Source of the DNA: Thermoplasmatales archaeon
GTDB taxonomy: Archaea; Thermoplasmatota; Thermoplasmata; Thermoplasmatales; GCA-001856825
Assembly: GCA_026127935.1 (NCBI GenBank)
Contig: JAJSLL010000001.1
Location: 64,040 to 128,039, forward strand
Length of the DNA stretch: 64,000 bases
Reading direction: 5' to 3'
A program made the translations under genes and the position numbers. Positions 10,512-45,019 of this stretch are shown here, piece after piece (the stretch's first letter is position 1; every line of letters starts with the position of its first letter). A model generated the notes under the pieces. The model did no database searches and was not told the DNA's origin. It saw only the letters and a program-made list of their open reading frames with translations.

Positions 10512-10512
10512 C

Positions 10513-18498: not shown

Positions 18499-18631
18499 TA
18501 ATATCAGGAGTGCATGTATGAGAGAATAAAAGTATTTTGCAGTCTTTTGGAGCGCTGAAAAATATCAGTGCTAGAAAAGTTCTCTTGAAACAGGATAAGT
18601 TGATATATCTCAAAAAATTTTCTTTCCTATC

Positions 18632-18702
18632 GCGAGTGTAGTGTAGCGGTAGCACAAAAGCTTCCCAAGCTTTTAACCCGGGTTCGAATCCCGGCACTCG
18701 CA
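18632..18702 (+). tRNA. tRNA-Gly (anticodon CCC), 71 nt, no encoded CCA
   Basis: Hand-folded. Acceptor GCGAGTG/CACTCGC, D stem GTGT/GCAC, anticodon stem AAAGC/GCTTT with loop TTCCCAA, and T arm CCGGG-TTCGAAT-CCCGG. Confidence 0.85.
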
Positions 18703-18824
18703 TAACAATCCCTCTGAACATACCTTTTCAAAGGTTAGGAAAATATTGGGCCACATCTTGCTATTCCCATCAACAGTTTCAATGTGAAGCCAATTTGTTG
18801 TTCATTTATTAATATAAAGACGCA

Positions 18825-26436: not shown

Positions 26437-27114
26437 TTGGCTAAGGAGAAAGCAAGCAGAGTTGCCTCGAAGAAAGTGAAGGATAAGTGGAAGGCAAAGA
26501 AATGGTATACGATACTCGCAAACGAATCATTTGGGAAGAAGGAAATAGGTAGCTCACCCGCATCCTCCCCGGAGGAGATGGTGGGAAGAGTTTCCGAAGC
26601 GTCACTCTCGGATATAACGGGGGACTACAAGCAGAGTCACGTAAAACTGTATTTCAGAATTACCAAGACGGAAGGTGACAAAGCCTATACGGAGTTTGAG
26701 GGTCACGAAATTAACCAGGATTACATCAGAAGGATGATAAGGAGAAGGAAAACAAGAATAGACCTGGTGGTGGATGCTGTAACCTCAGACAACAGCAGAA
26801 TCAGGATCAAGCCACTGATAGTGGTGGACAGAAAGGTCATAAACAATATCGAAACGGGGATCAGAAACAGAGTAGCTGAGTTCCTGAAGGCCAAAGTCAA
26901 GGAGCAACCAATTAGCCAGTTCATCGTCTACATGTTTTCCACCCAGATTTACAACGACCTTTATGAGCAAATCAAGGTAATTTATCCGGCCAAGAAAATA
27001 GAGATCAGGAGTTCGGAGGTTTTCGAACTGCCAGGGAAAGTTAGAGAAGAAGCGAAGATAGACACTGAGCCGGTGGAAGAACAGGAAGAGGAATCTGAAG
27101 CCGGGATGGCTTAG
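26437..27114 (+). CDS. rps3ae: Ribosomal protein eS1 (S3Ae)
   Basis: 225 aa with a TTG start and ..KVKDKWKAKKWYTILANESFG.. Its last 15 nt overlap the tRNA-Met 5' end. Confidence 0.9.
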   Translation: MAKEKASRVASKKVKDKWKAKKWYTILANESFGKKEIGSSPASSPEEMVGRVSEASLSDITGDYKQSHVKLYFRITKTEGDKAYTEFEGHEINQDYIRRMIRRRKTRIDLVVDAVTSDNSRIRIKPLIVVDRKVINNIETGIRNRVAEFLKAKVKEQPISQFIVYMFSTQIYNDLYEQIKVIYPAKKIEIRSSEVFELPGKVREEAKIDTEPVEEQEEESEAGMA

Positions 27115-27191
27115 CTGGTGGAGCACCGGACTCATAGGGATTGAAACACTGAGACATCCGGAGGTCGCGGGTTCGAACCCCGTTCCCGGCA
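27100..27191 (+). tRNA. tRNA with anticodon CAT (elongator Met, or Ile2 if modified) carrying a 19-nt intron at 37/38
   Basis: Hand-folded. Acceptor GCCGGGA/TCCCGGC, D stem GCTT/GAGC, anticodon stem CCGGA/TCCGG with loop CTCATA|intron|A, and T arm GCGGG-TTCGAAC-CCCGT. The intron at 27137..27155 forms a CTCA/TGAG helix flanked by 3-nt bulges. G1:C72 argues against an initiator tRNA. Confidence 0.85.
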
Positions 27192-27489
27192 TCTACGTCA
27201 TTCAGCCTTTAGCGGCAGTTTTACGAAATTTTTTTGAAACGTGAGAGACCGCATCTATCTTCTCGGATTATTGCCGAATTCTTTCGGATCAACTTCAGAA
27301 CACAAACCGGCTGTGTTACTACCAATTAAATTTACATCAATAGAGATCGTCTATTGCATGTGAGACTAGAGGAAATTTTCGAAATGACAGAAAGGAAGCG
27401 TTGTAAGGCATCAAGAATTCGTAAAATTGCACTCGGTCTCAGCACAATAAAGAAAAGTAACTATCAAGATTCTTCCAGACACGATTGCG

Positions 27490-28065
27490 TCAAAGGAGTG
27501 CTTTGACTTTGTCCAAGAAAGACTTTCCAAACATGGAGGCATAATTCCTCAATAACACAGTATCAGATTGGGCGAGCAGCGAACGCAGAGTTTCTGGATC
27601 CAGACCTATCCCATAATACAGGAAATCCAGTATTATCTTCTCTGGTCTTGATACTGGGACAAAGAGATTGGAGTAATTGACGTACTCGAAGCCAAAGAAG
27701 TACTTCTTGTTTATTCTTCTCACCTTGACCCTTTGTCCCATGATGAGTCTGATACCGGGATTTGCCTTGGAGGTTGTTACAACAATCGGTATGGATTGTT
27801 GCGTCCAAATCTTCCTTATGGTCAGCGCGTATTCCATCCCGTAATAGAAAGGTCTAAAGGCATAACCGGAAACCGCCTCGTTCTTGGAAAAGGTGTAGAA
27901 ACCTCTCTTAAGCCTTACCAATTCATTTCTCTCAGCCATGTTGTGCAGGAGAAGCTTGCTGTACCCCCCAACCGCACCATATCTGGACAGATATCTTTCC
28001 GCCTCGCTAGAAGTAAATATAGGCTTTCTCGAAAAGTATTCTGAAAAGCGTTTCTTATAGATCAT
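27490..28065 (-). CDS. AbiEi-like (type IV toxin-antitoxin antitoxin/transcriptional regulator) protein
   Basis: 191 aa. The N-terminal wHTH signature is ..IFTSSEAERYL..NELVRLKRGFYTF.. It overlaps the AbiEii-like gene by 11 nt. Confidence 0.6.
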   Translation of the reverse strand: MIYKKRFSEYFSRKPIFTSSEAERYLSRYGAVGGYSKLLLHNMAERNELVRLKRGFYTFSKNEAVSGYAFRPFYYGMEYALTIRKIWTQQSIPIVVTTSKANPGIRLIMGQRVKVRRINKKYFFGFEYVNYSNLFVPVSRPEKIILDFLYYGIGLDPETLRSLLAQSDTVLLRNYASMFGKSFLDKVKALL

Positions 28066-28696
28066 CCAGCCAACTCCTCAGGAAGCCGGACATCTCGGAA
28101 TAAGTAATGTTGGCATTGCCTGCATAAATAAGGGATCCAAGAATTTTTTCGTCAGAAGGTGATTGCATAGCATCGAGGAAATTGGAGAGGGAAGATCTTA
28201 TCAGATAGTCTTCCTTGTCTAGAAACTTCGTCAGTACAAAGAGATCATAAATGTCCCTGACCAACCTTCGCCCGAGGTAGGCTTCTATTTTTCTGACAAA
28301 GAGTTCTGTCGGAGTAAGGACGTTTATTGTGAGGGAAGAACCATCGGTCCTATAGTATTCCCTAATCATGTTCTCTCCTGTACCTCCTTTGGCCTTAATG
28401 AGTACGGAAACGTCATCGTTCGTTATTCGAACGTTTGTTGGAAACTCTGGGTCTCTCCACGACAGTTTCAAACCATATTTGGGCAGAAGGACCAATAGAT
28501 CCTCAACAGACGAGTTTTTCATGTAAATGTCAAGGTCTTCAGAAAACCTCATTCCGCCATAACATCTCCATACTGCAGTACCTCCATAGAGCAAAGCGGA
28601 AGGCTCGACCCTAGAATATATCAGGTCCATCAAGTAGTCCTGCAGTGAAGCTATTTTGAGTCTTTCTCCCGAAATCAGGTTTCCGATTGGTTCCAT
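28055..28696 (-). CDS. AbiEii/AbiGii-family nucleotidyltransferase toxin (DUF1814)
   Basis: 213 aa with the hallmark LLYGGTAVWRCYGGMRFSEDLDIY and the later ..RLVRDIYDLFVL.. Confidence 0.75.
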   Translation of the reverse strand: MEPIGNLISGERLKIASLQDYLMDLIYSRVEPSALLYGGTAVWRCYGGMRFSEDLDIYMKNSSVEDLLVLLPKYGLKLSWRDPEFPTNVRITNDDVSVLIKAKGGTGENMIREYYRTDGSSLTINVLTPTELFVRKIEAYLGRRLVRDIYDLFVLTKFLDKEDYLIRSSLSNFLDAMQSPSDEKILGSLIYAGNANITYSEMSGFLRSWLDDL

Positions 28697-29325
28697 ATTG
28701 ATAAGTAATAATTATAATATAATATAACTTTCGCTTATTAAATCCATTTCAACGGGATTCAGGAATGAAATCAACGGTTGCAAGATTTGTTGGTGCGATT
28801 TCGATAGCACAGAGGTGGAACGTGCGAGTGAAATGGAGTATTGTTCTGAACCAGAAAACACAATCTCCTGGACAAATCTAGCTATCCAAAACAATTTCCT
28901 CAATACACAAGAAGAGGTCCTGTTTATCTTTTGATATGTGAAGAATGTGGTTAGGTAGATTCCCACATGTTAGTTCTAGATTTTACTGCGCAACCCAAAA
29001 AATGCGGTATATGGATCAATCGTAGCTATTGAAGCATCGCCACAGGAAGGATTCTCGAAACCAATCACGATCTAAGCACTAGCTACTGACAGAAATCGAT
29101 TTGCCCGTACTGTGTAAGATTTCACTGGCTGGTTGACTCCTTACTCAGCTGTGAATTTGTCGCGATGCATATCAGAATGGTTACGACAATCTGGAGGAAC
29201 GGAATAAATGCAGAGTCCGCGAACGAGAAAAAGCATTACGGGCAATTCGCAGTCAAAGTTATTTTTTTGTACTCGTCCGAAGGACTCCCTCGTGCCTTGT
29301 GTCTAACTGTTTGGATTAACAACAT

Positions 29326-30078
29326 TCACTTAACTGTGAAATGCATCAGCGCCAGTGCTCCCCATTGGTCTGCTACCACAACTGTGTAGACACCCTGTGG
29401 AAAATAGCTGAAGTGATAGTTCTGGAATGTTGAGTTTCCGGATTCAGAACTGTTGTTCGTCCAGTAGCCACCGAAATTGAGGTTGGAATACAGAGTTATG
29501 CTGAATGGGGGATTGGGTCCCGAGACCACTGCAGTGTTGCTGTCAGGTTGGAAGAGGTAGTAGTTGAATTCCAGAAACACAGGGCACGCGTAAAAACCAG
29601 GCTCATACATTTGCAACGGAGTTGCATTTCTGATCGAATCCACCGTGAGGTTTCCACCGAATACTGCATACCCGTAAGGATAATAGGATCCACACGGGCC
29701 AGTAGAAAGAAGATGCGGTGAACCGTCTATGACTGGCCATGAGTCTCCACGTGACTCATTGATGATCGTATCACCCATATTCGCAAGCTGTATCCTGAGA
29801 GTTATGTTTGTACCGGAAGAAATGATTGTGTTATGCTCTGAGCCGAATACTTCGGACATCATGCCATCATTTACGGATGTCGAATAGCTCCCGGAAAGGT
29901 TGTGGTTTTCACCCGTCTCCAGAACCAATCCATGCAGGTTGTCTTTGCCTCCTGGCATAATGTGCGGCAGTATGAGGACAAGACTAATGGCTGCCAGAAC
30001 CACGACCAACGAAACAACGATTGCAATCGATGAAATTGCCTTAGGTCCAACCACCTTGTCGCCCTCTCCTTGCGCCAT
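29326..30078 (-). CDS. Membrane-anchored extracellular protein, function unknown
   Basis: 250 aa with one N-terminal TM helix (ISSIAIVVSLVVVLAAISLVLIL), then a Ser/Asn/Tyr-rich domain with several N-x-S/T sequons. Confidence 0.5.
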   Translation of the reverse strand: MAQGEGDKVVGPKAISSIAIVVSLVVVLAAISLVLILPHIMPGGKDNLHGLVLETGENHNLSGSYSTSVNDGMMSEVFGSEHNTIISSGTNITLRIQLANMGDTIINESRGDSWPVIDGSPHLLSTGPCGSYYPYGYAVFGGNLTVDSIRNATPLQMYEPGFYACPVFLEFNYYLFQPDSNTAVVSGPNPPFSITLYSNLNFGGYWTNNSSESGNSTFQNYHFSYFPQGVYTVVVADQWGALALMHFTVK

Positions 30079-30249
30079 CCTTAGTGTATCACTGAAATGT
30101 AATATTTACGGTTTTCCCAGATGAAGAATCGTGAGTGGGACTCATCTTTATCAAATTTTAAGATGGGTGCACTTCCAGTCAATCTGGAATCAATAGATTT
30201 ACCTAGCAGACGAACAATTCCATCCAATATTGAAAAGTGATCGTTAATT

Positions 30250-31140
30250 TCATGCAGAAGGTTTCTGTGAGTTCTCTCTCTTGACCATGATCCATTTCCT
30301 GTGATCCTTGCCGAAGTATGAGTCCATCCTGGCAGATAGATTTGCGAGGAACTCTATTGAAAACGCTCCGAACAGAGTGCCTACACTCCACTTTTTCTTT
30401 TTCAGGAAGGTTGAGAATATTTCCAGAAAGAGTGGGGTCTCTCTGAACACAAGGGTGTCCATTATCCTGGGGTCCCATCCGATCTTCTCTATCTCTATGT
30501 GACCAAAATTGACCCTTCTCCGCTGCTGGAACAGGTCGACTGGGTTTGAGGGAACGAAATTGTGGACTTCCTGATCTTCAAGATACTTTACCGAGAGCCC
30601 GTTATTGGCAGCCTTGATGCAGAGGAACTCATCCTCGTTGATTACCTCGGGTAGGTCTCGCAACAACCCCTTCCTCACGCAGAGGAATTCTCCCGCATGA
30701 ACGTTGCTGCCCCTGTTGGACATAATGGAAAGCTGAAGATCGTGCATTTCCCACATCAGGGTGCTTACCCTCTCCGTGTAGTTCCTGGTGTTGGATGGAA
30801 GTACCTTGGCTGAAACGACTCCGGTGGTGCCCGTGAAAGCGTCTTCGCATCTCTTTATCAGTGACGGTTCAAACGACACATCACCCGAGATGAGGAAAAC
30901 TATGTCACCCCAGATGTTGGATGATATGAAATTGAGTGCTCTCACCTTTCCTCTCCGTTCCCTCTCAAGCACCTTGATCAGCCTGTTATCCTCTATCCTG
31001 CCGATCTCTTCCGATATGGATTTCCCCCCATACAGGAGGAAAATCTGGTCAACATCGCTCTTCAGGACGGACCTCAGGGGGGACAGCACGAGGTCCCCAT
31101 CATTGTAGCTGAAAATGATGGCAGTCTTCTTCAACTTCAT
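30250..31140 (-). CDS. Glycosyltransferase family 2-like protein
   Basis: 296 aa with a GT-A-like N-terminus (TAIIFSYNDG..). Acidic motifs are ISGD and NEDEF. It is adjacent to a second GT2 gene. Confidence 0.55.
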   Translation of the reverse strand: MKLKKTAIIFSYNDGDLVLSPLRSVLKSDVDQIFLLYGGKSISEEIGRIEDNRLIKVLERERRGKVRALNFISSNIWGDIVFLISGDVSFEPSLIKRCEDAFTGTTGVVSAKVLPSNTRNYTERVSTLMWEMHDLQLSIMSNRGSNVHAGEFLCVRKGLLRDLPEVINEDEFLCIKAANNGLSVKYLEDQEVHNFVPSNPVDLFQQRRRVNFGHIEIEKIGWDPRIMDTLVFRETPLFLEIFSTFLKKKKWSVGTLFGAFSIEFLANLSARMDSYFGKDHRKWIMVKRENSQKPSA

Positions 31141-31141
31141 C

Positions 31142-31879
31142 TCAATATGCCTTCTCCCTTAGTATCGTCCTATAGGAGTTCAGCTCTGAAATGTACCTGG
31201 AGAGAAAGTTTTCAGTTATGATCTTTGACTCCCCCCAATTTCTTCTCCCGAAATAGAAGGGTACTTCCGTGAATCTCTTGTCGGCATTGCCCGTCAGTAT
31301 GGGAATGAGGGTCTTGTAGGCAATCCTTCCCTCAAACAACTCGAATATCTTGTCGTAAGAGACCTTGACACCTATGTCAAATGCGAAATACCCGGAAATC
31401 GGGTCTCTGTACTTTCTCCTGGGAGGCAGGAGAGTGTGACAGAGAGTGATGGCAGCTGATGTCGCATATGATCTCAGTGGATTCCTCTTAAACACCAGTC
31501 GTTCTTCAACGAACCTGCTCGTGATCACACCCGAACTTCCGTTCTCAATCTCCCTGACTATATGGGGTATCTTTTCTGGAGGGTGTTGAAGGTTCGAATC
31601 CACGACGGGCATCAAGTCTCCGCTTGCGTACCTAAGCCCCCTCAGGTTGGATTTCGGGAGGCCCTCTCTCTTTTCGTTCACGATAACTGTCAGGCCGCAG
31701 CCTGTTGGCTCCATCCTCTCCAGTTCCGCGATGGTACCGTCCGAACTGTTATCATCCACTATAATCAGTTCGTGCGGAATGTCCTTCGTTGTCGTATTTA
31801 TCCTGTCTATCAGATCCAGAACATTCCCCTTCCCGTTCAGTGTTGCGCTGACTACACTGACAAACTTCCCTGATCTCAT
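31142..31879 (-). CDS. GT2 glycosyltransferase, dolichyl-phosphate hexose synthase (DPM1/AglD-like) type
   Basis: 245 aa with ..VSVVSATLNGKGNV..HELIIVDDNSSDGTI..GDLMPVVDSNLQHPPEKIP.. The usual DAD position reads DSN. Confidence 0.7.
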   Translation of the reverse strand: MRSGKFVSVVSATLNGKGNVLDLIDRINTTTKDIPHELIIVDDNSSDGTIAELERMEPTGCGLTVIVNEKREGLPKSNLRGLRYASGDLMPVVDSNLQHPPEKIPHIVREIENGSSGVITSRFVEERLVFKRNPLRSYATSAAITLCHTLLPPRRKYRDPISGYFAFDIGVKVSYDKIFELFEGRIAYKTLIPILTGNADKRFTEVPFYFGRRNWGESKIITENFLSRYISELNSYRTILREKAY

Positions 31880-32262
31880 TACTCTTTCAAGTCAAATATA
31901 TTTAACTATATTTTGGTACTATTATCGAAGAGGAAGACAAGAAAAACGGATATTCAGGAACGAAGTTTCTTCATCTCTATTTACCGAAGTCCTTACCAGG
32001 ACGGAATAGTTGAGTCTTCTTTGAAGCACACAGTCGACGATTCCGTTTGATATGGCTTCAACTTCGAATCTCCATCCAGGGGCGGTGTGTCGATTCCTTC
32101 AGATTCCAGGATGGTAACCCAAATTTGGAAAGAAGATTCAGATGGGTGAGAAGCAGCGGCAGTAACTGAGTCTATTTGCCGAGAGGGAAACAGGTGATAG
32201 CTGAGACATTAGTTCAATTCGGGAACGAAAATAGTAAATATTCGTTCCCCATATGTACAAAT

Positions 32263-33537
32263 ATGGAAACAGGGGAAATCCTGAGACTTCTAAATGGTTG
32301 GTGGACAACAGGAATAGTCAGCGAAAATCTGGCCAGAAAATTCAAGCGGAAGAGTTTCAAGGATGCGCTTTCCATTCTTACCAACTATAGACAGATACTG
32401 GTCCTTACTGGATTAAGGAGAGTGGGAAAGTCTACAATTATGTACCAGCTTATCAATGATCTCATATCATCTGTCAGTCCACTGAAAATAATTTACTTTT
32501 CTTTCGATTTTGGGTCTGAAGAACTGCAACTGATTCTGAGGGAATATCAAAAGATCACAAAGATAGACTGGAAAACTGAAGAGACATTTCTGTTCTTGGA
32601 CGAGATTCAGAAGCAAAAGAATTGGGCCCCACAGTTGAAGATGATTTACGATGCGTTTCCTAACGTCAAGTTTGTCGTTTCCGGGTCAGCTTCATTACAG
32701 CTGGAGAGAGAGGTAATGGAGAACCTGGCGGGAAGGTACTATCTAATAGACGTCCCCGTCTTGTCTCTGGTCGAATATTTTTCACTCGAACACGATGAAG
32801 GGATAGAAAACGCAAGGCTTAATGAGGACAGAATCAAGCTCGAGATAGAACCGTATATACGAAAGCCCTTTCCCGAACTCGTGAAAGTCGCCGACGAGAG
32901 AATGATCTATGAGTACATCCGTGAGAGTGTAATTTCAAAGATTTTGGGACAAGACCTCATAAGCGAATTTGAGAAGGTTGAAATTCCCTTACTGAACTCA
33001 CTTATCAACCTGTTCTTCTCTGAACCAGGAATGACTCTGAACTATGATGGCCTTGCGAGAACTCTCTCCAAGAGGAAAGAAACGATTGAAAGGCATGTTT
33101 ACATGCTCGAGTTTTCTAAGCTGATAAGAGTTATTAAGAACTACCGGCCCTCAACGATGTCTGAATCAAGGAAGTTGAAGAAGGTATACCCGTATGACAT
33201 TTCGCTTGCACTATCATATTTTCCTTCTCTGGAAAGAGGGAGGGTGATAGAAGCTCTCTTGATGTCCAGGTTGAATACTAAGAGATACTGGAGGGAAGGC
33301 TCTAAGGAAGTGGATGCGTTGTATGAAATGAAAGGAGGTCAGATCCCCATTGAAATTAAAGCATCTAATACGCTGAAACCGGAACATACGAAAAATCTAA
33401 AATTCTATGCCTCAAAATTCGGTGGAAACCTTGGAATACTCCTTTACAACGGAAGAGAGGTGAAGATAGGCAAAATTAGGGCCATTGACATTGAAGATGT
33501 GTTGATCTACGGCTTTGAAAAAACTATAAACGAATAG
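32263..33537 (+). CDS. AAA-type ATPase with a DUF4143-like C-terminal domain
   Basis: Walker A GLRRVGKST, Walker B FLFLDEIQK, and an archaeal AAA_14/DUF4143 architecture. The ORF track starts at 32176, but the in-frame ATG at 32263 (METGEILRLLN..) fits the family length better. Confidence 0.75.
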   Translation: METGEILRLLNGWWTTGIVSENLARKFKRKSFKDALSILTNYRQILVLTGLRRVGKSTIMYQLINDLISSVSPLKIIYFSFDFGSEELQLILREYQKITKIDWKTEETFLFLDEIQKQKNWAPQLKMIYDAFPNVKFVVSGSASLQLEREVMENLAGRYYLIDVPVLSLVEYFSLEHDEGIENARLNEDRIKLEIEPYIRKPFPELVKVADERMIYEYIRESVISKILGQDLISEFEKVEIPLLNSLINLFFSEPGMTLNYDGLARTLSKRKETIERHVYMLEFSKLIRVIKNYRPSTMSESRKLKKVYPYDISLALSYFPSLERGRVIEALLMSRLNTKRYWREGSKEVDALYEMKGGQIPIEIKASNTLKPEHTKNLKFYASKFGGNLGILLYNGREVKIGKIRAIDIEDVLIYGFEKTINE

Positions 33538-33662
33538 CTTTCCCTAAGCGCACGCATTCCTTTTCTTTCACAGATAACATACAATGTTAGGCAACAAGCG
33601 CTGATTGAATGAGGAAACAATGAAATCAAAACAAAGAATGAAAAATCAAGAAAAAGCCCGCA

Positions 33663-34298
33663 CTAGAATATTGGCTGTCCCAGTCCCATCCCAGGTCCGA
33701 CGGCCACGTTGACCGTTTCTAGCAGAGTGCCACTGAGGCTGTATATGTTAACTACATCCTGGAAGACAACATACATAGGAACACAGTCTGAATAAACGCC
33801 CCATCCTGCACTATATGCTCCATTGGCCTGATAGGTAGCCCACTCTGTAGGATTATCGCTTACAGCCTGTATCTTCATGAACTCGGTTACAAAGTACGTG
33901 GCCCCAGCTGGAATCTGGTTCTGGTCAGTCCAGGCTACTGACGGATAACCATACTGTCCGTTGAAGCCATACCAGTCTGATGGGTTCATATCGTTAGAAT
34001 ACCAACTCCAGTGATTGGTTACCCAGGCACCTACTGGTTCAGTTCCCATCGGAGCCCAATCCTTTGACCATTTCATTACGATCCATGCGTTCCAAGTTCC
34101 ATATTCAAGCGGCGTGGATGGTTTCAGATAGTTACCATACCATCCATTGTAAAGGCGTGCCTGATAGTTATATCCATATTGATCAAATCCTCCTCCGTTC
34201 CCGTTTCCAGTTCCGTTAGCAGCGACCACCGTTCCTATTGACATTACCATCATGAAGGACAAAAGAATTGCAAATGCAACAATGGTCTTATTCATCAA
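33663..34298 (-). CDS. Secreted Trp/Tyr-rich protein, function unknown
   Basis: 211 aa with an N-terminal signal-like segment (MMNKTIVAFAILLSFMMVMSIGTVVA), then GNGNGGG and an aromatic-rich domain. Confidence 0.45.
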   Translation of the reverse strand: MMNKTIVAFAILLSFMMVMSIGTVVAANGTGNGNGGGFDQYGYNYQARLYNGWYGNYLKPSTPLEYGTWNAWIVMKWSKDWAPMGTEPVGAWVTNHWSWYSNDMNPSDWYGFNGQYGYPSVAWTDQNQIPAGATYFVTEFMKIQAVSDNPTEWATYQANGAYSAGWGVYSDCVPMYVVFQDVVNIYSLSGTLLETVNVAVGPGMGLGQPIF

Positions 34299-34601
34299 AA
34301 CACCCGTTGATTATTTTTTATGTCATACTTATGTATTTCTAAATATTAGGGCGACCTAAATTCCATGTACAACTTCCGAGAAAAGAATCAAGAATTTCGC
34401 TCTCAGAAGGGAACAGTTTATTGTCTCTCTGATTTTATTGAAACTATTCTCTTCCATGGACACCATACGGCAAACTTGGAACGTTCGTTCTCGATGTAGA
34501 CAGTCTACAGTGGTTTCGCAATTGGCAAAGGGGGTGAAGAGATACTGTTGTTCGAAATAATTGTGGCTAGCGTCTAGAGCATTAAATGCGCTCAATTCAG
34601 A

Positions 34602-35054
34602 TTAGGCCAGCACAGACATGCCTACGAACATTATTCCACCCAGTGCAATAAAGAATGAGACCAGCCCAGCTATGATGAAATAGAATTTGATCTTTAGAAC
34701 CTCATTCCACTTTTCTACTATCTTATCAGGCTGATCCAATCGCATTTTTTCTAGAATTGGCAGTGCAACGAAGATGAAGAAAACTATGCCAATTACAAAG
34801 AAAACTGGCGGTAAGATCAGAACGGACGGTAAGAAACTCGTACCAATAGCAGCACCGATACCTATGAACTTCAAGATTGCAAAGTAAACAGCGATGAAAC
34901 CCGACTGAACTGAAATCATTATACTCGCAAATGTTCTCAATACGTCAAAAGATTTTCCAGCCTGGTTCTCGGCTGCGGTGATGTACTCCTCTTCGGAACT
35001 AGACAACGGAGAAACCGAAACTACTTTGGGTTTATCGTTCACCATTATACTCAC
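34602..35054 (-). CDS. Small integral membrane protein, function unknown
   Basis: 150 aa with 3-4 hydrophobic helices and a GTG start coupled (GTGA) to an upstream small ORF. Confidence 0.45.
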   Translation of the reverse strand: MSIMVNDKPKVVSVSPLSSSEEEYITAAENQAGKSFDVLRTFASIMISVQSGFIAVYFAILKFIGIGAAIGTSFLPSVLILPPVFFVIGIVFFIFVALPILEKMRLDQPDKIVEKWNEVLKIKFYFIIAGLVSFFIALGGIMFVGMSVLA

Positions 35055-35402
35055 TTCACCGAAATATTGTCTTCTTTCATATTGGGTGGGATTGACAGCT
35101 CTATTTCAGCCTTGAAATGTTTCCCGGTAGTGGGACATTTGAATGCTCTTAGGATCTTGACATCTTTTCCTTAGGGTTCTTTCCCCGACTCATTCACCTC
35201 GTAATCCAGAGTCGTAACGATCGTGCCTTGGCCCTTGGGGAGATACGCCAGAGTATAATTATGGGTTGCTTTCTCAAACGGGCATTCGATCGATATCGCT
35301 TCGCTCCACTGAACATTCGTCATATCATTCTTCTCTCGCAATCATTCTGAGCGGATATCTTGCGTTTGTATACCGACTTGTTCGTATTTAATCTTGTTCT
35401 AA

Positions 35403-35724
35403 AATAGAGCTGATTTACACCAGCAGGAACATACTCAACATATTCCTCGCGGAAGCTTCAATTATGGGGTTCATTGGTGGTATTTTTGGAGTCGGAGTGG
35501 GGATATTGATTTCGTACGTGGTCGTGAGGGGTTCTCTGGATCTTCAAGGGGAACACTTAGTTTCATCGGTCGCAGGAGTTGAACTTCAATTTCTCCCGTG
35601 ATCAGTCCAGAACTGATAGTGCTGGCAATTCTCCTTGCGACTGCCTTTTAGAGGCACCGGGGGGTTGATACCAGGATGGAGGGCTTCAAAAATGTCCCCG
35701 ACAGAGGCGGTAAGAACTTTCTAG
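35403..35724 (+). pseudogene. C-terminal fragment of an FtsX/MacB-type ABC permease, frameshifted
   Basis: My own three-frame translation gives ..NILNIFLAEASIMGFIGGIFGVGVGILISYVV.., then ..ISPVISPELIVLAILLATAF* in a second frame, then ..GGLIPGWRASKMSPTEAVRTF* in a third. This is the canonical FtsX C-terminus. No N-terminal part is present. Confidence 0.55.
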
Positions 35725-35853
35725 AGGGATTCAATTAGAAGCGATTATCTTTCTTTAAATCACTAAATTGACCTTCAGACAAATTTGAGAACTTATCTCG
35801 TTGATCGGTAAGACTCTAATATAAGGCATTCATTACTTCATGGTAATGACAAA

Positions 35854-36084
35854 ATGATAAAACTGAGCAAAGTAACCGGAAAGGGACAGGTTACTATTCC
35901 AGTTGAGGTTAGGACCGATCTTGGGATAGTGATTGGAGACACAATTTTGTTTGAAAAGAGGAATGGACAAATTGTCATTAAAAAGGCTGAAAAGAAAAGT
36001 ATGGTTGAAGTTCTAGAAGATTCGACCCCCTTCAGTAAATCAACGATGAAAATGATGAAAAAAATCAGGGATGAGTGGGATTAA
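35854..36084 (+). CDS. vapB: AbrB/SpoVT-fold antitoxin (VapB-like)
   Basis: 76 aa with ..KGQVTIPVEVRTDLGIVIGDTILFEK.. It overlaps the PIN gene by 14 nt. Confidence 0.8.
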   Translation: MIKLSKVTGKGQVTIPVEVRTDLGIVIGDTILFEKRNGQIVIKKAEKKSMVEVLEDSTPFSKSTMKMMKKIRDEWD

Positions 36085-36511
36085 GATCTGCATAGACACC
36101 AATGTGTTCCTAAATGTCATCAACAGGGAGGATCCTTTTCATTCCTATTCAAGAAAGATATTGTCTGCAGTAGATGATGGGAAGATAGAGGGAGCAGTTC
36201 CAACTCTTGTGATCGCAGAGATACTCACTGGCTACTTTGCGAACAAGAGGGACACAGAGGCAGAGGAATTTCTATCTACCTCGTCAACAAATAAGAATCT
36301 AAAGATAGTTCCGCTGAGTACCGAAATCGCTCTGATATCGTCGAAGATCAGGGCATCAACCGGATTGAGACTTCCGGACGCTGTTGTGCTTGGAACGGCA
36401 GTCCAGTGGCATGCAGATTTCCTGGTCACCAATGATGAGCACTTCCCGAAGGTATTGGGGAACTTGAAGATCTTAGATTCTAGGAGAATGGTAGCTAATC
36501 TCAACGATTAG
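36071..36511 (+). CDS. vapC: PIN-domain ribonuclease toxin (VapC)
   Basis: 146 aa. Acidic residues are ICIDTNVF, VIAEIL, LPDAVVL and VTNDEHF. Confidence 0.85.
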   Translation: MSGIKICIDTNVFLNVINREDPFHSYSRKILSAVDDGKIEGAVPTLVIAEILTGYFANKRDTEAEEFLSTSSTNKNLKIVPLSTEIALISSKIRASTGLRLPDAVVLGTAVQWHADFLVTNDEHFPKVLGNLKILDSRRMVANLND

Positions 36512-36841
36512 CCTAATCAGACCGAGTTTCCAGAGAGAAAGATTTCAGACCTGTCAAGATTAGGTTCTGAATTGCCAAAGTGTTTGAGTGTTCGCTTTCC
36601 CAGGAACTCCTCCCCGGGACAGTCAATCTAAGCTACAGGGCCAAATTCTGGCACGCTCCTTTAGGTATAGGCGGGGTATTCCTTAGCCTCCATTGGTTTC
36701 CATCTTTAGCGTGAATCTTATTGGAAAGAGACCTGGATTATGCAAAGGGCTCTTCCACCATCTTAAGCTCCTGTATTCCTGAGGGGGTTAGGTCCCGCTA
36801 TCTATAGGGAAAGTTAGGTTTATCACCCAGGTCACGTTAGC

Positions 36842-37631
36842 TTGGTTATGGAGGGGGAGACAGTCTACGGCATAGAAAATGGTCTCAAGCTCTGCAAAGA
36901 TCGCCTAAATCGAGATAAGAGGATATCAAGGGATATTAAATACGCCATTCTTGACTTCGTGGATGATCTTGCCATAATGAATGTATCGGACCACGTACAA
37001 TACTCCTATATCGAAAGGCTGGAGATAGTAGCCAGAATGATGGGCCCTAGGTTCCTTGAGCCAAACAGGAGAATTGTGAAGGAAACAATGTTGAGCCTGA
37101 AGAGGTCCAAGTCCAGAAGGAATGACTACTATTCCGACAGCACCCTTAACAGTATTTACAATGCCAATGTAAATGCATCGTTCTCAATATCGCAAGAAGA
37201 AATGGATTGGTCAATTCAACACATCCATGTCTGTGTTGAAGGGCAGCACTGATACGCCCAGAGGTGCAACTCTATGAACGAAAGAGTCACCGAACCAAGA
37301 GGAACCCCACAGAATTTATTCGTGGGAGAATGTCAGGTCGCCATGAAAAGATTCTATTCGAGCTATAAAGACGGTGCCTTCTTAGGCGCTGTATCATGGA
37401 TCGAAATCAAAACAAGTCCAGCCAAAGCGAAGAAACCAGAGGACATTATTTCCATTGAGGAAAAGAAAAAACTGCTAAATGCTTGCCTTAACGAGAGAGA
37501 CAAGTCGCTTATTTCAATGCTCTATGATTCAGGTTGCCGAATAGGCGAGCTATTGGCTCTAAGAGTAAAGGACACTGAGTAAGACGACTATGGCATAAAA
37601 TTGACGGTCAATGGCAAAACGAGGGTCAGAA
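36842..37631 (+). pseudogene. Tyrosine recombinase (integrase), N-terminal two-thirds only, with two in-frame stops
   Basis: ORF-track pieces 36842..37252, 37274..37582 and 37601.. share one frame. They are interrupted by TGA (37253) and TAA (37583). ..NACLNERDKSLISMLYDSGCRIGELLALRVKDTE*DDYGIKLTVNGKT.. is the Arg-I box plus GKTG strand. The catalytic His/Arg/Tyr region is absent. Confidence 0.7.
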
Positions 37632-37849
37632 GAGCCAGGGAATTCCCGAAGGCAAAGGTCAGCGAGCAGCTCCTCAAAAAGTTCGTGCTCTACACGCTCT
37701 CATCCCAGATATACAACGAGCTGTACGATCAGATAAAGGCCATCTACCCGGCTAAGAAGATTGAGATAAGGAGCTCAGAAATATTTGAGCTGACAAAGGA
37801 AGTGCGAAGAGCAAAGAAGGAAGAGGAAACTGAGGCCGACGTAGCTTAG
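37617..37849 (+). pseudogene. Diverged duplicate of the last ~70 codons of rps3ae, fused in frame to the integrase remnant
   Basis: ..EFPKAKVSEQLLKKFVLYTLSSQIYNELYDQIKAIYPAKKIEIRSSEIFEL.. matches rps3ae ..EFLKAKVKEQPISQFIVYMFSTQIYNDLYEQIKVIYPAKKIEIRSSEVFEL.. Confidence 0.8.
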
Positions 37850-37935
37850 CCTGGTGGAGTCTCGGACTCATAGGGATCATTTAAAAGTTGTCTTGGACCA
37901 TTCGGAGGTCCTGGGTTCAATTCCAAGCCTCGACA
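37835..37935 (+). pseudogene. tRNA-Met-like copy (CAT, 27-nt intron), probably non-functional
   Basis: It has the same architecture as 27100..27191. However, the acceptor stem GCCGACG/CCTCGAC has two mismatches (C2-A71, C6-C67). The T stem CTGGG/CCAAG has one mismatch, and the intron helix is weaker. Confidence 0.6.
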
Positions 37936-38279
37936 TCTACATCTTTCGCGAATCGAAATCTGAATAGTACCTAGACTGAGGATTTATGTAGCGTAGTAAC
38001 TAAATCAAAAATGGTATGAATTTTTCCTTTAAATTGGTCTGCAACTCAATTTCCCTTAAGTGGTGAAGGTCCGTAGAATATAACTGGTCAAGAAACCCAA
38101 GCATACGAGCTAGACTCTAGAAATCTAAATTATCGCTCCTGCACAAAAAAAATTGACTAAGATTGTGGTCGGAAGCTTGTTGAAACCGACTTATTAGAAC
38201 AGATCGCATCAATATAACAAAATTAAAATAATACTACTGTCGATGATAAAATTCAAAAGCTTCCAAATATTACGTTTCT

Positions 38280-40643
38280 GTGACAAAGGGGGATGTTGAC
38301 TTCAATTTTGAAAATTACAAAACCATATTCGGGGTAGAAATTGCCAATGAGTCACTCTCCTATGCCAAGAAAAGAGATGAACTGGATAAGAAGAATTTTG
38401 CCTCGAACAAAGAAACTGTTAAAAGGCCGGAAGTAAGCCTTAGACGCTTTGAAGTTAGCTCAGATATAGTGAAGATAGATTTCGGTGACTGCACACTAGA
38501 CATCTCCCCTGTCTCTGAGAATTTACTCCATTTTGTCTGGTCACAAAAGGGGGAAAGTACTCCCAAGTACAGAAGAGATTTGAACGACAGGTTCACTCCT
38601 GAATCGGTTCACTTTAGAGTGGAATATGCGAAAGATGAAATTTATCTTGACGCAGGAATAGTGGGTATCAGAATTTGTAATAACGGATCGATAAAATATG
38701 AATTCACGGGAGAGATCATCCGGACTGATCTGCCACCGTTGATTTCGAACAGAAGCTTGGTGCATGAATCTCTGATAAGACGAAAGAGCAAGCTGTATGG
38801 TACGGGCGAAAGAGCACTCCCATTCGACTTGAGAGGAAACAGGGTAATTTTGTGGAATCACGACCCCAACGGAAGCTACGGTCCTGGAGTTGACCCCATC
38901 TACATATCCATTCCTCAGATCATAGATTTGGATGGTGCGAGAGGCTATGGGATAGAATACATGAACCCAAGCAAGGGTCTAATAGACCTCTGCAAGAAGG
39001 AAGAAGATTTGCTGAGAGTAGAATTCAGATCTGGTCAGCTTGATTATTATATTACGTTCGGAAACATGCAGGAAATACTGGAAAGGCTCGCGAACGTGAC
39101 GGGGCTCCCAATGCTGCCGCCCCGTTGGTCGTTTGGTTTTCACCAGTCCAAGTACAGTTATATGGACGCAAAACAGATCGAAGACGTAGTAACCAAGTTC
39201 CACCGACTGAACCTCCCGATTTCTGCTGTTCACATGGATATCGATTATATGAAAGGGTACCGGGTGTTCACGACAAACAAGAATAGCTTTCCCGATATCA
39301 AAGGACTATCCGACAGGTTGATGAGGAAGGGGATAAGACTGGTTTCGATACTCGATCCCGCAGTCAAATGGGACGAAGACTACGCAGTTTTTAAAGAGCT
39401 GGTGATGAACAGTGGCTATGTGAGAGACCCAGAGGGCAACCCGATAGCGGCACCAGTCTGGGCAGGTAAGTCAGTCTTTCCTGATTATTCGAGTGAAGAG
39501 ACGCAGAGGTGGTGGAGTTCACTCTATTCCTTCTTCGAAGACAACGGGATAAGCGGAGTCTGGCACGATATGAACGAGCCAGTCGCATTTGCCCTTTGGG
39601 GGGACAACAGTCTTCCACTCTCAGCGGTTCATGAAAAGGGCTCTCACTCCGAGATTCATAATCTCTACGCTCTATACATGGCAAAGGCAGGATATGAGGG
39701 TCTGACGAAAAATGCTAATGGATTGAGACCATTTTTACTCTCCAGATCCGGCTGGAGTGGCATACAACGATATTCGTTTGTCTGGACGGGAGACACGGAG
39801 AGCACATGGCAAGAGCTGAAGCAGACGGTTCCAACGATTCTCAACCTGAGTCTATCCGGAATCCCATATACGGGAGTCGATATAGGAGGATTCAGTGGAA
39901 CTCCTACCAGGAACCTATTCATAAGATGGTTCCAACTAGGTGCATTTCTGCCCCTCTTCAGGGTTCATTCTGCCAAGGGGACAGGAGATAGGGAACTGTG
40001 GAGCTACGGAGAAGAAGTGTTGGATATACTAAGAAGATTCATTGAACTGAGATACTCGCTAATTCCGTACTGGTACTCGGTAGCCTTTGACAGCCACCAG
40101 ACTGGACACCCTTTGATAAGACCGATTTCGTACCACTACCCGCAGATGTTCGATGGGTACTCGTTTATGGTCGGCGAATCGATCTTAGTGTATCCCGTTC
40201 TCGATGAGAATGTAAGGAAGATGAGGATCAAGCTTCCTCCTGGAAAATGGTACTCGCTTTGGGATTCCAGTGTGAAAAAGGGAACGGTAGAGGAAGACTT
40301 AGATGAGAGCCGTATTCCCGTATACGTAAGAGAAGGGAGCGTAATTCCAAGAGAGGACGGGAAGCTACACTTTGATGTCTACCCCGGAGGGAACTTTTCT
40401 TTCACCCACTATATGGACGACGATGGATTGGTACCAGTCTTCAGAACAATAAGATTCAACGGTCGATCCGATGGAGACACATTCTCACTTGAGTACGAAC
40501 AGAGCGGAGACATGAAAGACAACGAAACGGTTATTCTGATTCTGAAGAACAGGGACTGTGTGTTCAAGGAAAACAACAGTCAAGAGATCTCTGTATCACA
40601 GCGGAAAGGCAAAGTTGAAGTAGCACACAAATCTCAAAAATAA
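38280..40643 (+). CDS. GH31 alpha-glucosidase
   Basis: 787 aa with a GTG start. The catalytic nucleophile region is GVWHDMNEP, with GVDIGGF and WFQLGAFLPLFRVHS also present. Confidence 0.9.
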   Translation: MTKGDVDFNFENYKTIFGVEIANESLSYAKKRDELDKKNFASNKETVKRPEVSLRRFEVSSDIVKIDFGDCTLDISPVSENLLHFVWSQKGESTPKYRRDLNDRFTPESVHFRVEYAKDEIYLDAGIVGIRICNNGSIKYEFTGEIIRTDLPPLISNRSLVHESLIRRKSKLYGTGERALPFDLRGNRVILWNHDPNGSYGPGVDPIYISIPQIIDLDGARGYGIEYMNPSKGLIDLCKKEEDLLRVEFRSGQLDYYITFGNMQEILERLANVTGLPMLPPRWSFGFHQSKYSYMDAKQIEDVVTKFHRLNLPISAVHMDIDYMKGYRVFTTNKNSFPDIKGLSDRLMRKGIRLVSILDPAVKWDEDYAVFKELVMNSGYVRDPEGNPIAAPVWAGKSVFPDYSSEETQRWWSSLYSFFEDNGISGVWHDMNEPVAFALWGDNSLPLSAVHEKGSHSEIHNLYALYMAKAGYEGLTKNANGLRPFLLSRSGWSGIQRYSFVWTGDTESTWQELKQTVPTILNLSLSGIPYTGVDIGGFSGTPTRNLFIRWFQLGAFLPLFRVHSAKGTGDRELWSYGEEVLDILRRFIELRYSLIPYWYSVAFDSHQTGHPLIRPISYHYPQMFDGYSFMVGESILVYPVLDENVRKMRIKLPPGKWYSLWDSSVKKGTVEEDLDESRIPVYVREGSVIPREDGKLHFDVYPGGNFSFTHYMDDDGLVPVFRTIRFNGRSDGDTFSLEYEQSGDMKDNETVILILKNRDCVFKENNSQEISVSQRKGKVEVAHKSQK

Positions 40644-40653
40644 CCGCTTAAAT

Positions 40654-41724
40654 CTATTGGTGAAGTTTCATTATTTTTCTGATCTTTTTTGACTTTCCTT
40701 CCTTCTTCCCATCTATTTCAAGAGTCATTTCTCGCATCTTGATGTCTTCGAGTCTGGCAGTTTTTCCACCAACAGAGTAGGTTCTTCCCTTAGACGAAAT
40801 GAAGAAAGTGTGCCTCAGACCCATCACAATCTCTGCACCGGGAATCTCTCCCTCCAGTGAGACTTCCCTCTCCTTCCAGAGACCCTTGACTACTCCTCTA
40901 AAACCGTGTTCTATTCTGTTAATAGAATTAATGGCTTCACACGCAAACCAGGCTGAAGCGAAGACCCATCTCTTCTTAGACAGGAAATTGCTAACGTACT
41001 CAGCAGGGAGCCAGATCGTGTGGTAGTAATAGTAGCTGAGAATGTGGATCATCTCGTCCTCAGCAAAATATAGGGCATAATAGCTCTCAATACCGGTCCC
41101 GTTGACATTCAGAATACCGGTGGATCTATCCACAATCAGCACCTCAGATGCAGTTCCAGGTCTCCTACGAATTACCATGTCGTTTTTTATAGACTCAAGG
41201 GATTGATCATCCGTGTCTGGGTAAACAGTGAGACCAACTGTCACTCCCCTCCTTGCGGCTTCTATCAGGAACTTTTTCACATATCTAAATGTGGGATTTG
41301 TAACAGAAATCAGGACTTCCGTCTTTGCATTGTTGATCATTGATTTAATATTCTCATTAATGTACTGCCTCTTATCTATCAGCAAGAGTGCTGGTATGGC
41401 GACCGGTCCACTAGTCCGGCGGGCCTTTACAAAACTCGATATCTCTTTCTTGAATTCTTGGAGCCTTTCGATATCCCTTTCTATGACAGTCTCAACGGGA
41501 AGAGCCCTGTAAATTCTTTTCTTGTCCATGCTCCCCTGTATGAAACCCTTGTCAGTTAACGTCCTGAATACATCATAGACCCTTGGCTGTGGGACTCCAG
41601 AAATTCTGGCAGCTTCCGTCGAGGACAGCGGACCGTTGATCAAAAGGCTACTATAGATCTTGATCTCGTATGAAGAAAGTCCCAACCTTTCCAATCCAGC
41701 AAAAATGTCTTGGCCCTTTGGCAT
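40654..41724 (-). CDS. TrmB-family sugar-responsive transcriptional regulator
   Basis: 356 aa. The N-terminal wHTH is LGLSSYEIKIYSSLLINGPLSSTEAARISGVPQPRVYDVFRTLTDKGFI, followed by a long effector domain. It sits between the GH31 gene and the ABC transporter genes. Confidence 0.85.
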   Translation of the reverse strand: MPKGQDIFAGLERLGLSSYEIKIYSSLLINGPLSSTEAARISGVPQPRVYDVFRTLTDKGFIQGSMDKKRIYRALPVETVIERDIERLQEFKKEISSFVKARRTSGPVAIPALLLIDKRQYINENIKSMINNAKTEVLISVTNPTFRYVKKFLIEAARRGVTVGLTVYPDTDDQSLESIKNDMVIRRRPGTASEVLIVDRSTGILNVNGTGIESYYALYFAEDEMIHILSYYYYHTIWLPAEYVSNFLSKKRWVFASAWFACEAINSINRIEHGFRGVVKGLWKEREVSLEGEIPGAEIVMGLRHTFFISSKGRTYSVGGKTARLEDIKMREMTLEIDGKKEGKSKKIRKIMKLHQ

Positions 41725-41877
41725 CGTTTGTCCTCTTTAGAGTTAAGAATTTACTACCTCATCAATGTTCGCTTTTCTTCAGCTACCTGCGAGAAGCATA
41801 TTATCTTCTACTACTGGGAGGTGTATTTCTTCACAGTCGCTGCAAAGTATATTATGTGATTAGTCTTTCCTTATATT

Positions 41878-43059: not shown

Positions 43060-43102
43060 TTCCTCTCTGAGAAGTCTCTCCCGTCTCGCCAGTCTAAGGA
43101 TG

Positions 43103-44029: not shown

Positions 44030-44037
44030 CGTTCACC

Positions 44038-44946: not shown

Positions 44947-45019
44947 ACCCTACCACATCAAAGTGGAAATGAAATAAAAAAGAGATAAAGTTTGTTCTTG
45001 CTGTAGTTGAGTGGCTCCT

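Follow-up and report, generated by a model that had tools for sequence, protein, structure and literature searches.

Specialised transducing derivatives of phage lambda of the gal/bio type, such as lambda dgal, lose element DNA at one end and gain host DNA at the other. The icd prophages of Escherichia coli (phage 21 and e14) have a long homeologous repeat in which the differences are mostly synonymous. Here we analyse a 64-kb window of the genome of a Thermoplasmatales archaeon (i.e. the whole stretch of DNA analysed, within which all positions are numbered), where the 3′ end of rps3ae, encoding ribosomal protein S3Ae, and the tRNA-Met gene that overlaps it occur twice. The interval that ends in the second copy, ~27192/27205 to 37935/37948, is best explained (with a probability that we put at about 0.55) as a defective and decaying insertion of a circularised donor tRNA-Met neighbourhood at the 3′ end of the native tRNA-Met gene.

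Islands linked to tRNA genes are known to gather DNA that does not look mobile, and the capture of flanking DNA by imprecise excision has been proposed as a source, mostly without direct sequence proof. Such capture was proposed for tRNA-linked islands in Prochlorococcus (the tycheposon model; 10.1101/2020.12.28.424599). The present locus preserves the proposed scar, i.e. an integrase gene that breaks off at codon ~205 and continues as a ribosomal-protein gene and tRNA of foreign origin, and there is a matching empty site. It therefore provides a concrete archaeal example of the transfer of an ordinary chromosomal neighbourhood. The transfer appears to have included glycosyltransferases and toxin-antitoxin pairs, and to have spanned approximately a genus-level distance among acid-mine-type Thermoplasmata.

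A native and a foreign copy of the rps3ae/tRNA-Met module

Relatives were retrieved through S3Ae, taking one genome per species. Seventeen were informative (L001-L017, with I-plasma as L009), all of them metagenome-assembled genomes of Thermoplasmata, and the closest is L001, with 96-98% DNA identity to the window upstream. Further contigs (handles between L049 and L089, and P0008) are related loci that were compared with the window.

Copy 1 of the module is intact. The rps3ae gene (26437-27114, plus strand) has 225 codons and matches Ribosomal_S3Ae (Pfam PF01015) with 207.8 bits. The tRNA-Met(CAT) gene (27100-27191, plus strand) is intron-bearing and is the attachment target; it scores 58.4 bits with Rfam RF00005, and ARAGORN in bacterial mode mislabels it as Tyr(ata). 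The rps3ae-tRNA DNA is 98% identical to that of L001 and 87.7% identical to that of L077, and the tRNA is identical to those of L001, L066 and L077, so that copy 1 is the native orthologue. The short-intron tRNA type common to copy 1, L001, L066 and L077 differs from that of L002-L005 and L007-L009.

The preliminary description of this DNA, made from the sequence alone, had placed a truncated recurrence of the module downstream, at an estimated 70-75% identity. The recurrence is real: 26876-27204 aligns with 37635-37948 (BLASTN within the window, E=1e-21), and at its limits the homology runs from ~26861/26876 to 27204 against ~37617/37635 to 37948, i.e. to 13 nt past the tRNA. The estimate of identity was slightly too high, the values being 66.9% over 299 nt by BLASTN and 69% over 290 ungapped columns by MAFFT. 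The S3Ae part of copy 2 (37635-37849, plus strand, ~codons 144-225) was assigned by Pfam and phylogeny. It forms the C-terminal part of an 82-codon open reading frame (ORF; 37601-37849) and matches Ribosomal_S3Ae over profile positions 138-188 with 29.0 bits (E=9.1e-07), below the gathering cut-off of 29.3 bits. The foreign tRNA-Met pseudogene that follows (37835-37935, plus strand) scores 27.8 bits with Rfam, against a gathering score of 29. It lacks the pairing of a functional tRNA, since pairs 2-71 and 6-67 and one pair of the T stem are non-canonical, and its minimum-energy structure is not a cloverleaf. Its long intron and T arm are those of L002-L005 and L007-L009 among the 17 relatives compared. 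Judged against all relatives, the acceptor stem carries one compensatory change (pair A5-U68), suggesting that this tRNA once functioned elsewhere.

The manner in which the copies differ is informative. In the 30-codon block 26941-27030 versus 37703-37792 an exact count returned the 16 synonymous and five replacement codon differences that had been counted by eye. Over 53 codons the method of Nei and Gojobori gave Sd 28.2 and Nd 20.8, with pS 0.88 (i.e. saturated) and pN 0.16, a synonymous excess with a binomial p=1.5e-8. The ratio dN/dS is far below 1, and roughly <=0.1 in comparison with relatives for which dS can be estimated. Saturated pS with low pN indicates that copy 2 diverged under purifying selection in another lineage. 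Copy 2 has ~0.1 more non-synonymous change than functional orthologues, some of it at residues invariant in all 17 relatives, which fits some decay after function was lost. In neighbour-joining trees copy 2 was sister to copy 1 or to L001 in 0/300 bootstraps, and it grouped with the clade of copy 1 and L001-L009 in 100% of the 300, as its sister in 56% and inside it in 44%. Copy 2 is most similar to L004 (75% identity), followed by L007, L008 and L003 (72-73%), with L077 at 70%. On these comparisons copy 2 is foreign, and comes from a lineage about as distant as the other genera of the family-level clade.

The status of copy 2 as a pseudogene, and of the source as a metagenome-assembled genome, might suggest duplication in place followed by decay, or a chimera of assembly. 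The synonymous excess and the saturated pS rule out neutral decay from copy 1, and a copy that is never sister to copy 1 is not a duplicate decaying in place. Moreover, both junctions of the interval recur in independent assemblies from different samples and pipelines, the left in L057 and L058 and the right in L049-L055. We regard either origin as extremely improbable.

The arrangement of the site prior to insertion is seen in L077 and L078, which were found through the GH31 protein cluster and are ~90% identical to the window over 5.2 kb of upstream core. Both carry a copy-1-type tRNA that is followed directly by the trailer that in the window follows copy 2 (59/64 nt). Beyond it they have an unrelated AbiEi/AbiEii pair, and then a GH31-TrmB-MalK-permease-substrate-binding protein (SBP) cluster at 96%. 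By alignment with L077 and L078, the trailer ('t'; 37936-38028, plus strand) is that of the native tRNA-Met site and forms the right boundary of the insert. It is missing from the GH31 cassette in five other contexts, where homology begins only at 38029 or 38214, so that it belongs to the tRNA site and not to the sugar cassette. As the native site is tRNA followed by trailer, 27192/27205-37935/37948 is an insertion that ends right in the foreign rps3ae′/tRNA′. The earlier proposal that the second copy was imported after evolving under purifying selection elsewhere is thus supported by selection, phylogeny and the empty site.

At the left, synteny with all 17 relatives stops at 27191-27196. The boundary lies at the 3′ end of the tRNA gene, leaving the tRNA of copy 1 intact. 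The junction zone (27190-27204, plus strand) contains CATCTAC, 7 nt that are identical at both ends, inside an imperfectly repeated 14-nt trailer, CATCTACGTCATTC; the junction alignments agree with the preliminary description in finding CATCTAC after both copies. Copy 1 matches L001 and L077 to the final base of the tRNA while copy 2 differs up to the 3′ strand of the acceptor, and hence the crossover lay within or just after the shared CATCTAC. In L053 the truncated integrase gene (int′, described below), copy 2 and the trailer lie on an L077-like background with a second AbiE pair, so the island occupies this junction in more than one background. Within the window there are no further tRNA remnants with <=3 mismatches, and the direct and inverted repeats reported by find_repeats, other than D2 and D4, are short, chance-level matches.

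We note two further features of the tRNA site. In L077 (7345-9705), and also in L078 and L053, an insert carrying AbiEi and AbiEii (237 and 253 aa) plus a 94-aa ORF begins 66 nt after the tRNA; it is bounded by an imperfect direct repeat of 17-19 nt, TTTATGTAGCGCAGTA / TTTAATGTAGCGTGGTA, whose equivalent in the window is 37983-38001. On the other side, rps3ae overlaps tRNA-Met by 15 nt on the same strand (27100-27114 and the equivalents in L001-L014), the acceptor and D arm of the tRNA encoding the last five S3Ae codons (..AG[VM]A) plus the TAG stop. The overlap is kept in L001-L014, and in L015-L017 the stop precedes the tRNA. Processing of a rps3ae-tRNA co-transcript by RNase P would remove the stop codon from the mRNA.

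An integrase fragment fused in frame to S3Ae

A tyrosine-recombinase pseudogene (36848-37634, plus strand) precedes copy 2, and was delimited by translation and by tblastn with the integrase of L006. It corresponds to codons 1-205 of ~427; with the L006 query, residues 1-104 and 105-205 alone were matched. The integrase ORFs of 36842-37582 form a single reading frame with two in-frame stops. The fragment scores 23.3 bits with Pfam Phage_integrase, below the gathering cut-off of 27.1 bits. It retains the N-terminal domain and the region of the first catalytic Arg, and is thus not a complete recombinase; the 64-kb window has no match to residues 206-427, to which the catalytic K, HxxR, H/W and Y belong. 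The L006 integrase is full-length (427 aa), Xer-like with a C-terminal zinc ribbon, and intact while chromosomal. Homologues of the integrase are few and lie on short contigs. Four loci in IMG/VR (27-38% identity) have no tRNA beside the integrase in the stretches available, NCBIfam gave sub-threshold XerA/XerC/XerD-like matches only, and PHROGs the generic 'integrase'.

The preliminary description had this pseudogene abutting copy 2. The pseudogene is confirmed, but the two do not merely abut, since they are fused in frame at a microhomology (37614-37634, plus strand; comparison of the nucleotide sequences of the window, the L006 integrase and copy 1). The stretch AAAACGAGGGTCAGAAGAG (~18 nt) fits both integrase and S3Ae (AAACGGGGATCAGAAACAGAG in copy 1); it reads KTRVRR in the window, the counterparts being GKTGVRK in the L006 integrase and ETGIRNR in S3Ae. 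The integrase frame continues as DDYGIKLTVNGKTRVRR, matching integrase DDYGMKLTVKGKTGVRK, and passes without a shift into S3Ae (A)REFPKAKV, so that integrase codon ~205 is fused to S3Ae codon ~144. The 82-aa ORF is the same in all seven contigs with copy 2, and int′ is present as an ORF in each of the four that reach further upstream. The joint has the appearance of an illegitimate, microhomology-mediated join.

A joint of this kind might be younger than the insertion. An element with an intact integrase and a captured flank could have integrated itself, after which a microhomology-mediated deletion in situ removed the catalytic half of the integrase together with the 5′ part of the captured rps3ae fragment. 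This would explain site-specific integration without a helper, and the interval is visibly decaying: there are stops and 177 extra nt in int′, an inversion and deletion in L050, a deletion of copy 2 in L082, and an insertion of a MITE-like element (miniature inverted-repeat transposable element; ~276 nt) in int′ of P0008. It calls for one event more than the insertion of a circle that already contained the joint, and neither a longer rps3ae fragment nor a full-length integrase stands beside copy 2 in any contig. We consider such a late fusion unlikely, though it is the alternative that we take most seriously.

Some details of these variants may be recorded here. The additional 177 nt (37160-37336) hold the first in-frame stop and have no counterpart in L006. 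They are skipped in a second, 95-100% identical integrase copy in L052, a contig that looks partly palindromic and may be a misassembly. The MITE-like element (GTGACCTCCTCTCCCAGC...GCTTGCATATG) is non-coding, has no significant match in Rfam, and is absent from the window. It is present at 741-1016 of L082, before the sugar cassette in L079-L081, and in P0008, and it sits before TTAAAT at the equivalents of window positions 36933 (inside int′) and 38029. L082 has the order VapC-int′(5′ end)-MITE-like element-cassette, copy 2 having been deleted, apparently by recombination between two copies of the element.

A long homeologous repeat dominated by synonymous differences is also the product of replacement of a gene 3′ end, as by phage 21 and e14 at icd. 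Here the crossover would have been at codon ~144, making copy 1 element-derived and copy 2 the displaced native sequence; the intron and T-arm type of copy 1 and L001 does differ from that of L002-L005 and L007-L009, which copy 2 has. However, copy 1, including its 3′ part and tRNA, is common, at 95-100%, to L001, L066 and L077, which at this site lack copy 2 or have other DNA downstream, and the copy-1-type module with native trailer in L077 contradicts a replacement. There is no breakpoint at codon 144 of copy 1, the 5′ and 3′ parts being similarly identical to relatives, nor a pattern of gene conversion, as the 15 positions of rps3ae at which the window and L001 differ do not follow copy 2. 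Copy 2 is in addition on the wrong side of the truncated integrase, and an integrase gene is not recovered when the ends are joined. An element that replaces a 3′ end was rejected on these grounds, copy 1 being orthologous to that of island-free relatives and copy 2 foreign, and we rate it as very unlikely.

Partition of an integrase of SSV type ('suicidal' integration), with attP inside the integrase gene and a split into Int(N) and Int(C), is suggested by the N-terminal fragment reading straight into the right repeat, like Int(N)-attR (PMC8371274). An Int(C) is found neither beside copy 1 nor elsewhere in the 64 kb, and codons 206-427 are also absent to the right of the copy-1-type tRNA in L057, L058 and L066. 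The repeat is 320 nt at 69% and not an identical core, joining the ends gives int′::S3Ae′ and not an integrase, and in L006 the gene of the related integrase is unbroken in the chromosome. With no Int(C) on the left, and nothing restored by end-joining, this is not a partition of SSV type, and we give that explanation almost no credence.

Chromosomal gene order in the interval and the probable course of insertion

In L001, L002, L007 and L009 the tRNA-Met gene is followed by a gene for a ~200-aa membrane protein on the minus strand (termed geneX) and then by a GT2 glycosyltransferase gene. L008 has an extra 760 bp downstream of tRNA-Met, and L006 has just a GT2 remnant. The interval contains a remnant of geneX, a pair of GT2 genes and an ATPase gene, in the order and orientation found after tRNA-Met in L001, L002, L007-L009, L066 and L075; in L075 the order is GT2-GT2-(insertion sequence (IS), Fic)-ATPase. 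Thus while the accessory island of the preliminary description is indeed an insertion, it is not a self-contained element, as its content keeps the order of the chromosomal tRNA-Met neighbourhood of the relatives. The geneX remnant (29110-29223, minus strand) comprises the last 38 codons with an internal stop. It has 55% identity to geneX of L003 by tblastn and the C-terminal extension of the L003 type (..ATNSQL.KE...Q.NL.Q), and tblastn gave no match to geneX of L001. With copy 2 nearest to L004/L003 and a remnant that is L003-like, the two ends of the insert agree in indicating a donor like L003/L004. In the form of a circle, copy 2 would precede the AbiE pair and geneX, as is usual in the chromosome.

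We therefore favour the following course. The insert would be a ~10.7-kb piece of the tRNA-Met neighbourhood of another chromosome, from a donor diverged at approximately the genus level within the same family-level clade, and having the order rps3ae, tRNA-Met, (AbiE pair), geneX, GT2, GT2, DUF4143 ATPase, small membrane and secreted genes, VapBC, integrase. In a first step codon ~144 of the donor rps3ae and codon ~205 of the integrase, ~10 kb apart, would have been joined at the ~18-nt microhomology. We infer that this aberrant excision, comparable to that by which specialised transducing genomes arise, generated a circle that carried the 3′ end of the donor rps3ae, the whole tRNA-Met and only the non-catalytic half of the integrase. 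A single reciprocal crossover within or next to CATCTAC would then have put the circle between the native tRNA and the native trailer, most likely through a tyrosine integrase acting in trans, or through the element's own integrase before it was truncated. The outcome would be an intact native rps3ae/tRNA-Met on the left and the truncated donor copy on the right. The island would thereafter have been trapped, with decay of the right copy, the integrase fragment and parts of the cargo, and with separate gain or loss of the AbiE sub-module.

A number of observations weigh against this course. The GT2 genes of the insert are 82-89% identical to those of the species group L066, L069 and L075, where ~70% would be expected from a genus-level donor. 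The C-terminal end of the L001 GT2 (54 aa, at which the contig ends) has 59% protein identity to the window and 91% DNA identity to L008; set against the 96-98% identity of the core, this indicates that GT2 alleles are shuffled between lineages independently of the core, and it is only because of such shuffling that the high GT2 identity can be reconciled with a genus-level donor. In L066 a block of the 250-aa ORF and GT2 stands behind a copy-1-type tRNA, the contig ending before any int′-copy 2. The interval is without a functional integrase, and the identical core at the crossover is merely 7 nt (CATCTAC) within a ~320-nt repeat of ~69% identity. An internal deletion at a later time, and not excision, could have created the fusion joint. 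A circular or excised form was not observed among the assembled contigs, and none of the contigs compared joins 37935 to 27192 or 27191 to 37936 at strain-level identity. A donor genome with a functional rps3ae of copy-2 type was not found in the collections searched, and the donor gene order is to that extent deduced and not seen; a word-indexed protein search with the S3Ae fragment returned the fragment itself as sole match, and the best match in a scan of a single metagenome had 59% identity. 

The scan of tetranucleotide composition and GC over 27-38 kb revealed no compositional foreignness, as expected for a related donor. Replication or packaging genes were not seen in the interval, nor was an active element, and nothing demonstrates a virus or transfer vehicle.

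The high identity of the GT2 block to species-group relatives, and its position behind a copy-1-type tRNA in L066, would be consistent with a different origin, in which copy 2 belongs with the DNA on its right. A linear segment from a divergent lineage (rps3ae′ from codon 144, tRNA′, trailer and GH31 cluster) would have entered a resident integrase gene by homology-facilitated illegitimate recombination, with microhomology on the left and a homologous anchor on the right, and tRNA-Met-AbiE-geneX′-GT2-...-VapBC-int would all be native. The GH31 cassette is clearly mobile, being 96-97% identical in at least six contexts, above the core identity of 90%, and L006 has a related integrase and VapBC element in the same neighbourhood. 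By contrast, the trailer after copy 2 is 92% identical to that of L077 whereas copy 2 itself is 70% identical to the L077 rps3ae-tRNA, and in other contexts the cassette is without the trailer; the tRNA′/trailer boundary is therefore a recombination junction and not contiguous donor DNA. Also, what remains of geneX to the left of the GT2 block resembles L003 and not the geneX of the closest relative, L001. Given the discontinuity of copy 2 and trailer and the L003-type remnant, linear entry from the right seems improbable, and we retain the insertion of a circularised donor neighbourhood.

The cargo named in the preliminary description was examined with Pfam. The AbiE pair, VapBC, the DUF4143 ATPase, the two GT2 genes and the recombinase fragment were all recovered, but there was no hit (E<=0.01) for a proposed FtsX fragment. 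Secreted and membrane proteins are predicted as described, with two ORFs having an N-terminal signal or anchor and one having four hydrophobic, transmembrane-like segments. AbiEi-like (27490-28065, minus strand; AbiEi_4, 25.4 bits with a cut-off of 25) and AbiEii (28055-28696, minus strand; AbiEii, 50 bits with a cut-off of 22.5) are adjacent with an 11-nt overlap, and would constitute a type IV toxin-antitoxin pair of the AbiE family. They lie in a 2.0-kb sub-module (27194-29202), delimited by synteny, that also holds an 84-aa ORF and most of the geneX remnant and is absent from L066 and L067. In these two contigs a copy-1-type tRNA (94%) is followed by the equivalent of 29203 onwards (88%), with ~20 nt of the geneX remnant retained, and L066 joins 27193 to 29203. 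The sub-module therefore represents an indel of its own, for which a deletion in the L066/L067 lineage is the simplest account.

Next to it is a 250-aa ORF with an N-terminal anchor or signal and no family (29326-30078, minus strand), found beside tRNA-Met also in L066. The two GT2 genes (30250-31140 and 31142-31879, both on the minus strand) occur together in L066 (the first at 89%), L069 and L073-76, and homologues of the first lie beside tRNA-Met in L001, L006 (as a remnant) and L007-L009. IS605 OrfB genes adjoin the pair in L073-L075. The AAA_14 and DUF4143 ATPase (32176-33537, plus strand; Pfam) has a 72% homologue after the GT2 pair in L075. Three ORFs without family follow on the minus strand (33663-35054), of 211 aa (with a signal peptide), 79 aa and 150 aa (with the four transmembrane-like segments). 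L050 is a variant in which 33762-34368, with the 211-aa secreted-protein gene, is inverted and 34369-35063, with the 79-aa and 150-aa ORFs, is missing. Finally VapB (MazE/AbrB-type; MazE_antitoxin, 41.8 bits) and VapC (PIN, 72.8 bits) occupy 35854-36511 on the plus strand, overlap by 14 nt and are predicted to form a VapBC toxin-antitoxin pair. An exact look-up of VapC and of the 225-aa S3Ae of the window found no record, probably owing to differing start calls.

The 3′ flank of tRNA-Met varies in 17/17 relatives, and this flank of rps3ae/tRNA-Met is a hotspot throughout the family. As such it should be of use in studies of pangenomes and in the tracking of strains. In L003 a 9-kb block of metabolic and transport genes separates tRNA-Met from geneX (2689-11688), and L005 has a second, intron-less tRNA-Met 1.2 kb downstream (11993-12067). 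L006 has an insertion of 6.7 kb further downstream (12372-19068), between homologues of window positions 48926 and 49025, carrying a 964-aa secreted protein, the full-length integrase of the same family and two PIN toxin-antitoxin pairs. In L066 a 4.4-kb insertion (3169-7572) lies upstream of rps3ae, between window positions 26119 and 26181, with RloB and AAA_21 (OLD-like) genes and two ORFs of no known function, so defence genes also insert on the other side of rps3ae.

A broader and more speculative reading, which we think improbable, is that the rps3ae-3′/tRNA-Met module acts as a portable homology 'handle' that repeatedly moves cassettes for the cell surface, glycosylation and defence from one genus-level lineage of the wall-less Thermoplasmata to another. 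Such transfer would proceed by homeologous or microhomology recombination after exchange of chromosomal DNA, largely independently of a dedicated integrase, and the conserved 15-nt overlap would keep rps3ae and the tRNA travelling together.

To the right of the trailer is a sugar cassette (38029-46876) with GH31, TrmB, a MalK-like ATPase, two permeases, SBP and a truncated alpha-amylase. It is 96-97% identical in at least six left-hand contexts (L077, L079, L080, L081, L087 and L089; the core of L077 is 90% identical), and appears to have been mobile recently. In L069, L070 and L088 an intact amylase is followed by the GT2 pair. The segment 1898-2351 of the window is 81% identical to the end of the L077 contig (18208-18661), right after the sugar cassette, and may be repeated or IS-related. 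The strongest tetranucleotide outlier of the window (47000-55000) coincides with genes of 1210 and 367 aa. The repeats of the latter (52950-53880) resemble parts of large ORFs in L006, L007 and L009, that of L006 being its 964-aa Ser/Thr-rich secreted protein.

Comparison with known tRNA-linked elements

The locus resembles the Islander-type tDNA islands (PMC4383910) in its insertion exactly where a tRNA gene ends on its 3′ side, with an intact tRNA at one end and a repeat of it at the other, a tyrosine recombinase gene at the distal repeat, accessory and defence cargo, and an empty site in relatives. It differs in that the distal repeat is a complete foreign tRNA with 215-230 nt of the upstream protein gene, at ~69%, that 7 nt are identical at the crossover, that the integrase is without its catalytic half, and that the cargo is largely a chromosomal neighbourhood. 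It is thus a tRNA-linked island by its target and empty site, and possibly by its repeat, and lacks the complete integrase of one. The preliminary description had called a long homeologous repeat unusual for elements that target tRNA genes. The repeat is as described, but it does not define a new kind of att site, being explained by captured donor flank.

In phage 21 and e14 at icd there is likewise a long direct repeat of a gene 3′ end with mostly synonymous differences. Here, unlike these prophages, the functional copy is native and the distal copy foreign, and the crossover lies at the 3′ and not the 5′ edge of the homology. With the SSV-type archaeal integrases the locus has in common the link to a tRNA, an N-terminal integrase fragment at an att-like repeat and trapping by an incomplete integrase (PMC8371274). 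In contrast to them it has neither a partner Int(C) nor an identical att core within the integrase gene, which is truncated by illegitimate fusion to the gene of a ribosomal protein. Like replacement-type flexible islands, the site carries different glycosyltransferase, membrane and secreted genes in each lineage, with GT2 departing from the core phylogeny, but the event here was additive, i.e. an insertion with a duplicated flank, and not the replacement of an allele.

The locus also fits the hypothesis of flank capture. As in lambda dgal, one end has been lost and host DNA gained at the other. As in the tycheposon model, donor DNA that flanked the element is left beside the tRNA, where degenerate integrases and tRNA remnants accumulate (10.1101/2020.12.28.424599). 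What distinguishes this locus from both is that the illegitimate joint itself (integrase codon 205 :: S3Ae codon 144) is preserved, and that its host is archaeal. The locus does not constitute a new type of system; it is the known principle of the tRNA-linked island, with its joint preserved in an archaeon.

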